A DNA stretch of 32,463 nt from Escherichia coli (lineage in GTDB: Bacteria > Pseudomonadota > Gammaproteobacteria > Enterobacterales > Enterobacteriaceae), in NCBI RefSeq assembly GCF_003334385.1, contig NZ_QOWN01000051.1. One strand, 5' to 3'. Below the pieces are notes generated by a model. It was given only the letters and a program-made list of their open reading frames with translations. It was not told the DNA's origin and searched no databases. The translations under genes were made by a program, and so were the position numbers. How positions within the stretch are numbered: position 1 is the stretch's first letter; every line of letters begins with the position of its first letter. Shown piece after piece: positions 30,334-31,102 of this stretch.

Positions 30334-31073
30334 TCAAACTGTTAAGATGATAAATGTGGTAAATCTGTTGGTACTAACATAAAAACGTTTACGCCACAGG
30401 AACAGTCTGATCCACCGGTAACCCCGTCGCCGACGTTCGAGTGCCAGTTAGAGTAACGCGCACAGATAACTGAATGCAGTGCCCTGACAAAAAGGCCATC
30501 GTTCCTGTGACAGCTGGCAGCCTTCGTTTAACTTCACTTAATCTGGCTCTTGGGGGCTTACCGAACAGATGACGTACATACGCCCGTTCAATTTTCCATT
30601 ACTTATTGGAATGAACACCTGTAACCATTTTGTGCGGCATGTTAATCCATTAAAATATCTTACTGATTGGCAAATCATCTTCAATGACAGCTCATCATAG
30701 TTTTATATTCTATCCCTTACCCTTAAAACTTGTTTTTTTACTAGTCCATCACACAGCGCATTAAGACTATTCCTAACACTTCAGGGCAAAGTTCCTGACC
30801 AATATAAAATGCAAGTAAGAATTGAACGTTATATTGCCAATAACCTTATGAAACCAAATGTCTTTTTCTTCTTATCAAAAAAGCAATATTTTCAGTTTTT
30901 CTAAATATTGACTTAACCATTGAATTCCTTTTCCGTTCACATATTGACACTCATCGGGAAAAAAAACATAAATTTAAGCCCAATCGAAAATAATTAAACT
31001 TAATCTCGTTTAACCTTTATTGATATGTACTACGTATCTTATTTACTTCCGGTTTACTAAGGAAACTGAATGC

Positions 31074-31092
31074 ACCTGTAAAAATTACAGGT
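31074..31092. promoter_or_regulatory. Palindrome ACCTGTAA-AAA-TTACAGGT about 10 nt upstream of the ecpR start codon
   Basis: Directly visible 8-bp inverted repeat with 3-nt spacer at the end of a ~770-bp AT-rich upstream region; candidate operator, possibly autoregulatory. Confidence 0.3.
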
Positions 31093-31102
31093 TTGGAAAG
31101 TA

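Follow-up and report, generated by a model that had tools for sequence, protein, structure and literature searches.

A dyad in the ecpR leader of Escherichia coli: possibly an RNA stem-loop, in an already known control region

Introduction

What does a perfect palindrome do, if anything, when it lies shortly upstream of ecpR (matA), the regulator gene of the ecp (mat) pilus operon of Escherichia coli? The palindrome stands in a contig of 32,463 nucleotides (NZ_QOWN01000051.1; this whole stretch is called the window here) and belongs to a K-12-type ykgM-ykgO / ykgL / ecpR-ecpA locus. An initial annotation had described positions 30334 to 31102 as a long AT-rich control region with an operator-like dyad next to the start codon that could serve autoregulation or binding by another regulator. 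Our analysis indicates that the dyad is most likely an ordinary stem-loop of the mRNA leader, and possibly nothing at all, in a control region that is itself already known. The argument turns on four features.

31074..31092, + strand: the dyad, ACCTGTAA-AAA-TTACAGGT, with a predicted 8-bp stem, a 3-nt loop and a dG (free energy of folding) of -7.7 kcal/mol
30982..31150, + strand: 5' leader of the ecpR mRNA, ~169 nt long if counted to the ATG and 121 nt if counted to the legacy GTG, with a putative start
30944..30974, + strand: core ecp promoter, -35 TTGACA at 30944-30949 and -10 TAAATT at 30969-30974
31151..31693, + strand: ecpR (matA) coding sequence, 180 aa, with EcpR_N and GerE/LuxR-type helix-turn-helix domains

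Results

Position of the dyad in the transcription unit

The palindrome at 31074-31092 proved to be as first described: its 8-nt arms are 100% complementary and are separated by a 3-nt spacer. We aligned the E. coli alleles of the region with a divergent sister Escherichia-like lineage (L004, L017-19), K. pneumoniae-type loci (L015, L016, L022), Enterobacter mori (L012-14), two further Enterobacter-like lineages (L026; L029/L041/L042), the K. oxytoca group (L005-L009, L024, L025) and Pantoea (L010). A scan of genome contigs for related loci gave 8 loci, and a metagenome scan for Enterobacter-type leaders gave two contigs, both of the lineage already represented by L029.

Across all lineages aligned, Klebsiella, Enterobacter and Pantoea included, the string TTGACAC...AAAAA..TAAATT is invariant, and the core promoter block as a whole is 74% identical. 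According to a secondary source (PMC10038029), EcpR activates the ecp operon, and the promoter of the operon lies 121 bp upstream of the start, or first codon, of ecpR. Counting 121 back from the legacy GTG at 31103 gives 30982, which is 8 nt past the conserved -10. With that GTG as the reference point, the published distance thus agrees with the conserved promoter, and a sigma-70 promoter would start ecp transcription near 30982. With a start there, the dyad would occupy positions +93 to +111 of the leader. Independent evidence of transcription through the dyad comes from a reverse transcription PCR assay, in which the forward primer CTGTAAAAATTATAGGTTTG (the E2348/69 allele) overlies the dyad and an ecpR complementary DNA product was obtained in all strains tested (PMC5962669).

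The length of the -35/-10 spacer varies: Klebsiella, Enterobacter and Pantoea have 17 nt, O157/B2 E. coli and the L004 lineage have 18 nt, and an A8 run at 30959-30966 brings the K-12-type allele to 19 nt. A scan for promoter and terminator consensus sequences did not call the ecp core promoter, and the 19-nt spacer accounts for the miss. The longer A-run spacer could also underlie the poor expression in K-12 of the common pilus of E. coli (ECP/Mat) and the 'mat promoter polymorphism' that Lehti 2013 is said to have reported. The sequence ATATTGAC occurs as a direct repeat at 30905-30912 and 30941-30948, 36 bp apart, and the upstream copy, as (GTAA)ATATTGAC, is also kept across genera. This upstream copy resembles a further -35-like element, or else an activator/UP contact, placed just before the core promoter.

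The ecpR start codon

Two start codons have been assigned to ecpR.

31103..31105, + strand: legacy GTG start of the 196-aa K-12 annotation; RefSeq uses another start
31128..31153, + strand: ribosome-binding block, GGACTATGAGGTT...ATATG(G), with the Shine-Dalgarno (SD) sequence and the ATG at 31151

RefSeq starts ecpR at the ATG at 31151, which gives 180 aa, and homologues in the protein database are 179-180 aa long. The frame of the legacy GTG is closed in K. pneumoniae (GTG ACG TTG TAA) and in E. mori (GTG ACA TTT TAA), and the L004 lineage has GTA at this position, followed by an in-frame TAG. Nothing else in the region is as well conserved as the block with the SD and the ATG, in which the lineages share 90% identity. 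The GTG at 31103 is unlikely to be the physiological start; both RefSeq and conservation between genera favor the ATG at 31151. The dyad lies 10 nt before the first of these codons and 58 nt before the second, so the description of it as next to the start codon holds for the legacy GTG and fails for the conserved ATG. If the 196-aa start is wrong, as is probable, constructs and statements of distance to the start codon that were built on the GTG are off by 48 nt.

We also considered a conserved upstream mini-open reading frame beginning at the GTG and rejected it, as frames and lengths vary by lineage and L004 has no start. As a separate observation, two K. pneumoniae-type loci (L020 1304-1515 and L021 555-766) carry a 12-nt deletion that removes the conserved SD block (GGAC/AACTATATG). 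The EcpR called there is truncated to 166 aa, and this allele is likely inactivated.

Predicted folding of the leader

In the thermodynamic ensemble of the leader, seven of the eight pairs of the dyad hairpin have a probability of 0.85-1.0, and the hairpin is present in both the minimum free energy and the centroid structures. The model places it inside a multibranch fold that is closed by pairing of the ribosome-binding site with a distal segment.

31001..31009, + strand: predicted anti-SD segment, UUAAUCUCG(U), putatively pairing with 31134-31142

This 9-bp pairing of 31001-31009 with the SD region has a probability of ~0.97 in the E. coli leader model. Over nine lineages 85% of its cells are paired, with one-sided U·G to C-G changes and no double changes; the anti-SD heptamer reads AUCUCGU, AUCCCGC, ACCUCGU, ACCCCGU or ACCUCAU, depending on the lineage. 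RNAalifold favors an alternative local hairpin (31132-31154) in which the SD is paired with the AUG, and there are no compensatory double changes in that hairpin either. The dyad pairs with itself and not with the SD or the start codon, and so does not resemble an SD-sequestering leader or an RNA thermometer. The hairpin loop does not qualify as a CsrA site, since it is AAA and has no GGA.

The hairpin could instead be a transcriptional pause or attenuation signal. It stands in a long leader, and UUU comes right after it (31093-31095, with the closing U counted). However, the terminator scan made no call here: the stem has 3 G-C pairs, a 3-U tract and a dG of -7.7 kcal/mol, unlike a G+C-rich stem followed by at least five U residues, and the homologous hairpins of K. 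pneumoniae and L004 are followed by AAGCAG rather than by U. We regard attenuation as the least probable of the readings considered.

Natural variants within E. coli

Among 4992 E. coli records we compared 32 nt, namely the dyad and the 13 nt downstream of it. The exact sequence was present in 4716 of them. The sole common polymorphism, C31088T (265 records), changes the G31078-C31088 pair to a G·U wobble, which is tolerated in RNA, while the symmetry of the DNA is broken. It occurs on both K-12-like and B2-like backgrounds, among them the enteropathogenic E. coli (EPEC) strain E2348/69, which is ECP-proficient and in which ECP expression has been studied. A single strain, DS26-1, combines C31088T with G31078A at the pairing partner, by which an A-U pair is restored. 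This is the classical compensatory path from G-C through G·U to A-U. No more than 10 records in all have a different change. The natural variants therefore suggest that RNA pairing is kept rather than DNA sequence.

These observations bear on the simplest alternative, that the palindrome arose by chance and has no function, a neutral accident specific to E. coli in an AT-rich, low-complexity leader that has not yet decayed. Under that explanation it would be a coincidence that a wobble-compatible transition should be the sole common polymorphism of the 32 nt, and that the one second-site change found hits the pairing partner with the compensating base, an event of ~1-2% if random.

Comparison of the dyad across genera

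Of all blocks of the region the dyad has the lowest conservation, with 58% identity across lineages. This speaks for a neutral accident and, set against the better kept protein sites, also for an RNA element rather than an operator. In the other genera the sequence differs, yet a local hairpin persists, with the same 5' (G/A)CC as its anchor. In K. pneumoniae, GCCAGUAAACUUUAUAGGC folds in the same register (GCC(A)GUAA/UUAU(A)GGC) with an outer G-C for A-U, a single A·A mismatch and a single G·U, and an alternative stem GCCAG/CUGGC can also form. L026 has a hairpin AUGCCU/GGGCAU and E. mori a hairpin CCUU/AAGG. In L029/L041 the arms are kept around a 4-nt loop (CUGUA-GUUU-UACAG) with one base less between them. 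Such variable arm spacing suggests a loop, for which it is natural, rather than the target of a dimeric DNA-binding protein, for which it is awkward. That hairpins recur at one place in the leader, although the sequences there are unrelated, speaks against an accident, and the outermost pair covaries from A-U to G-C.

Several points weigh against selection on the stem. The E. coli register has 71-75% of cells paired versus 22-46% in slid registers, but this control is inflated, as the structure under test came from a sequence that is itself in the alignment. Shuffles reach the observed percentage of paired cells in 127 of 500 cases and the observed covariation in 17 of 500, and the latter value rests on a single covarying pair. 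RNAalifold, with eight and with nine lineages, predicts no consensus pairs at the dyad, and a scan of 29000-32463 against Rfam at E <= 1 gave no match. Cross-genus covariation at the dyad is thus weak. Within E. coli, the compensatory double mutant is one genome; C31075A, the one change inspected among the remaining 10 or fewer records, breaks a pair; and invariance within the main allele classes is not significant, since ~11 variable sites in 191 nt lead one to expect about one in 19 nt. In addition, a stem-loop 40 nt from the ribosome-binding site has no obvious mechanism by itself, the literature yielded no experiment on the leader, and the transcription start is taken second-hand.

The frequency of such repeats must also be considered. 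The exact 19-mer pattern occurs once in the window and never in shuffles, but this is the wrong null for judging significance. A perfect inverted repeat of this class (8-nt arms, loop of 3-10 nt) turns up in 13% of the dinucleotide shuffles made from 30334-31102 (769 bp) and in 3.3% of those made from the 169-nt leader, and there are three further perfect inverted repeats (8-14 nt) within the surrounding 1.3 kb. Taken alone, then, the dyad is not beyond chance.

Weighing both sides, we tentatively favor the reading that the dyad is a leader RNA stem-loop under some selection, and we rank the neutral accident close behind it as a real but somewhat less probable explanation. Literature searches (ecpR with TTCCT, ecpR with UTR for untranslated region, and the dyad sequence) returned no description of the dyad, the primary footprinting papers being outside their reach. 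As far as the literature could be checked, the dyad is a real, minor and previously undescribed feature.

DNA-operator explanations

The alternative proposed at the outset is a DNA operator, at which a dimeric regulator would bind downstream of the promoter and act as a roadblock or repressor; SdiA, EcpR, RcsB, a LexA-like protein or an H-NS nucleation element could be involved. The dyad has perfect twofold symmetry, and 7+7 of its arm bases are identical to the lux box of Vibrio fischeri. It is fixed in 94.5% of the E. coli records, and the double variant of DS26-1 restores the symmetry of the DNA as well as that of the RNA. It is also true that H-NS-silenced operons often have downstream elements.

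On the other hand, the spacing is wrong for the lux-type and LexA families, and the dyad contains neither a TTCCT nor an RcsAB motif. It is not kept in Klebsiella and Enterobacter, unlike the protein sites upstream. In 265 genomes, ECP-expressing E2348/69 among them, CAG is changed to TAG in one half-site only. In L029/L041 the CTGTA/TACAG arms stay while the center loses a further base, as suits a loop and not an operator. For an operator placed at the start codon it is also hard to account for a position at +93 to +111 of the leader, 58 nt before the conserved ATG, for an identity of 58% versus 79% for the EcpR/RcsB block and 90% for the SD and ATG, and for variants that keep pairing. Autoregulation by EcpR through the dyad is unlikely because the dyad lacks both motifs, and the EcpR/RcsB boxes are found ~300 bp upstream. 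Taken together, we consider the operator readings unlikely.

One specific version deserves mention. It could be speculated that SdiA or another GerE-type dimer recognizes the dyad as an E. coli-specific, lux-box-like site one bp short, and so couples foreign quorum signals to common-pilus expression. We found no binding data for acyl-homoserine lactone receptors (LuxR-type) on the dyad, and the one SdiA paper queried does not mention ecp or matA. This version is very unlikely.

Other known sites were compared with the dyad and rejected. The TyrR box (TGTAAA-N6-TTTACA) and the CRP, NarL 7-2-7 and Fis sites differ in spacing or orientation; the EvgA box has the opposite order of half-sites; the MqsA palindrome (ACCT-N2-4-AGGT) does not accommodate the N11 spacer of the dyad; operators of the LacI family have an even length and a central CG; and CpxR sites are direct repeats.

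The upstream control region

The protein sites of the region lie upstream of the promoter.

30762..30796, + strand: EcpR/MatA-RcsB site, an RcsAB-box core and two TTCCT boxes, with binding predicted from sequence
30622..30981, + strand: AT-rich ecp upstream control region, ~31% GC, kept across genera, with H-NS, IHF and EcpR-RcsB control according to the literature
30334..30621, no strand: distal part of the region first reported, of ordinary GC, Escherichia-specific and adjoining the divergent ykgL

The RcsAB-box core TAAGACTATTCCTA at 30762-30775 is an exact match to TAAGA-N4-TCYTA and the sole zero-mismatch hit in the window. It contains the first TTCCT box (30770-30774); the second lies at 30792-30796, with N17 between the two. 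A conserved block, TTAAGA(C/A)TATTCCTAAC...GGGC.AA..TCCTGG, covers this site, is kept in Klebsiella, Enterobacter and Pantoea, and is 79% identical across lineages. EcpR reportedly binds TTCCT boxes in the work of Martinez-Santos et al. 2012, and we take the boxes at 30770 and 30792 to be the EcpR boxes of that study.

With ecpR-ecpA directly downstream, the TTCCT boxes in place and a promoter position that fits the published distance, the region is the ecp (mat) control region, as the initial annotation had it, and as such was already known. The mat operon is activated by heterodimers of MatA (EcpR) and RcsB and repressed by H-NS (PMC5651002, citing Martinez-Santos 2012 and Pannen 2016). The AT-richness of the region is consistent with H-NS. 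IHF is named in the title of the primary paper on ecp regulation; the exact IHF consensus WATCAANNNNTTR has no match anywhere in the window.

The extent of the region had been overestimated. The ~770 bp of AT-rich DNA first described are AT-rich for ~480-500 bp (30601-31102, 31.3% GC) and not in 30334-30600, where GC is 46.8% against a window mean of 48.6%. Homology to the ecp locus of K. pneumoniae begins at 30622 and homology to Enterobacter at 30759, and the distal part aligns only to the sister Escherichia-like lineage (L004/L017, from 30306). Because composition and homology both change near 30601-30622, the conserved AT-rich control region would measure ~480-500 bp (30622-31102). Judged by these comparisons, the distal ~290 bp lie outside it.

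Insertions were seen in this interval. In E. coli CFSAN051542 an IS1 element is inserted at the junction equivalent to 31070/31071, 3 nt upstream of the dyad, and separates ecpR from the promoter and every control site upstream. An IS1 is likewise present in the spacer between ykgL and ecpR of strain 22AR0434 (H1).

Surrounding locus

Over the 1037 bp from ykgO to the legacy ecpR start, identity to E. coli K-12-type chromosomes is 100%, and the same stretch was found in 5069 of 5426 complete E. coli genomes. The gene order in RefSeq, on identical DNA, is ykgR, ykgM and ykgO on the + strand, ykgL on the - strand, and ecpR, ecpA and ecpB on the + strand.

30100-30327, - strand: ykgL, RefSeq annotation, divergently oriented relative to ecpR

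A perfect 14-nt inverted repeat (ATTAATGTTGGTGT/ACACCAACATTAAT, 7-nt loop, 30116-30150) lies between the convergent ykgO and ykgL and is probably a bidirectional terminator. Some Klebsiella genomes have a second, divergent ecpR-like gene that is 59-63% identical and has its own TTGAC...TAAATT-like promoter. The two copies lie ~7.5 kb apart on one contig in Klebsiella oxytoca NBRC 105695 (L006 and L011), and a second copy is also seen in L027/L028. These second genes imply putative paralogous ecp-type operons in Klebsiella.

Discussion

Our best guess at the working of this locus is as follows. An EcpR(MatA)-RcsB box at approximately -220 to -186, together with AT-rich DNA that would respond to H-NS and IHF, may feed the sigma-70 promoter. 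The dyad would then be transcribed at +93 to +111 of the ~169-nt leader and would matter, if at all, as an 8-bp RNA stem-loop with an AAA loop. As a stable local module, the hairpin may shape or stabilize a folded leader in which the distal anti-SD segment at 31001-31009 would pair with the ribosome-binding site at 31134-31142, and it may thereby modulate translation of EcpR, the stability of the leader mRNA, or both. The data show where the dyad lies, that it is transcribed, how stable the hairpin is predicted to be and how its natural variants are distributed, whereas we infer both the selection on pairing and the role of the hairpin.

Published work is compatible with control at this level. 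In EPEC, Hfq represses matA (PMC8550237), which indicates that post-transcriptional control of matA mRNA exists, and ECP production can be uncoupled from ecp transcription (PMC5962669). Neither observation implicates the dyad hairpin itself. If the hairpin and the anti-SD fold are functional, they would add a post-transcriptional layer to the EcpR/MatA switch between adhesion and motility, and such a layer, if true, would fit both the repression of matA by Hfq and the uncoupling of ECP from ecp transcription. For the control region, which is textbook-level knowledge for the ecp operon, nothing changes.

Comparison with known systems

The closest DNA-level likeness of the dyad is to the lux box, ACCTGTAGGATCGTACAGGT (PMC4444344). 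Both arms agree with it in their outer 7 bases (ACCTGTA...TACAGGT). However, the dyad is 19 bp long rather than 20, with a center of 5 rather than 6 and CTG-N9-CAG in place of CTG-N10-CAG, so that its spacing is not that of a lux box. It lies at +93, whereas the lux box lies near -42.5; it is absent from Klebsiella and Enterobacter, which also carry SdiA; and 5% of E. coli dyads have TAG for CAG in one half-site.

The dyad also shares CTGT...ACAG with an AT-rich center with the LexA (SOS) box. The consensus of that box is CTGT-N8-ACAG, and the CTGT-N7-ACAG of the dyad does not have this spacing. To our knowledge, ecp is not an SOS gene.

For the region as a whole, the comparison is with the ecp/mat regulatory region of Martinez-Santos 2012, Lehti 2012 and 2013, and Pannen 2016. 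It is the same locus and nothing differs: the two share TTCCT-N17-TTCCT boxes in an RcsAB-type box, a promoter that fits '121 bp upstream', AT-richness and repression by H-NS.

Among RNA elements, leaders that occlude the SD differ from the dyad hairpin, which has neither the SD nor the start codon within it, lies away from the 5' end, and is known here from prediction. The dyad is best compared with bacterial 5'-leader stem-loops in general. Like them, it is a short, stable hairpin in a long leader, its variants keep pairing, and a long-range anti-SD pairing is predicted around it.

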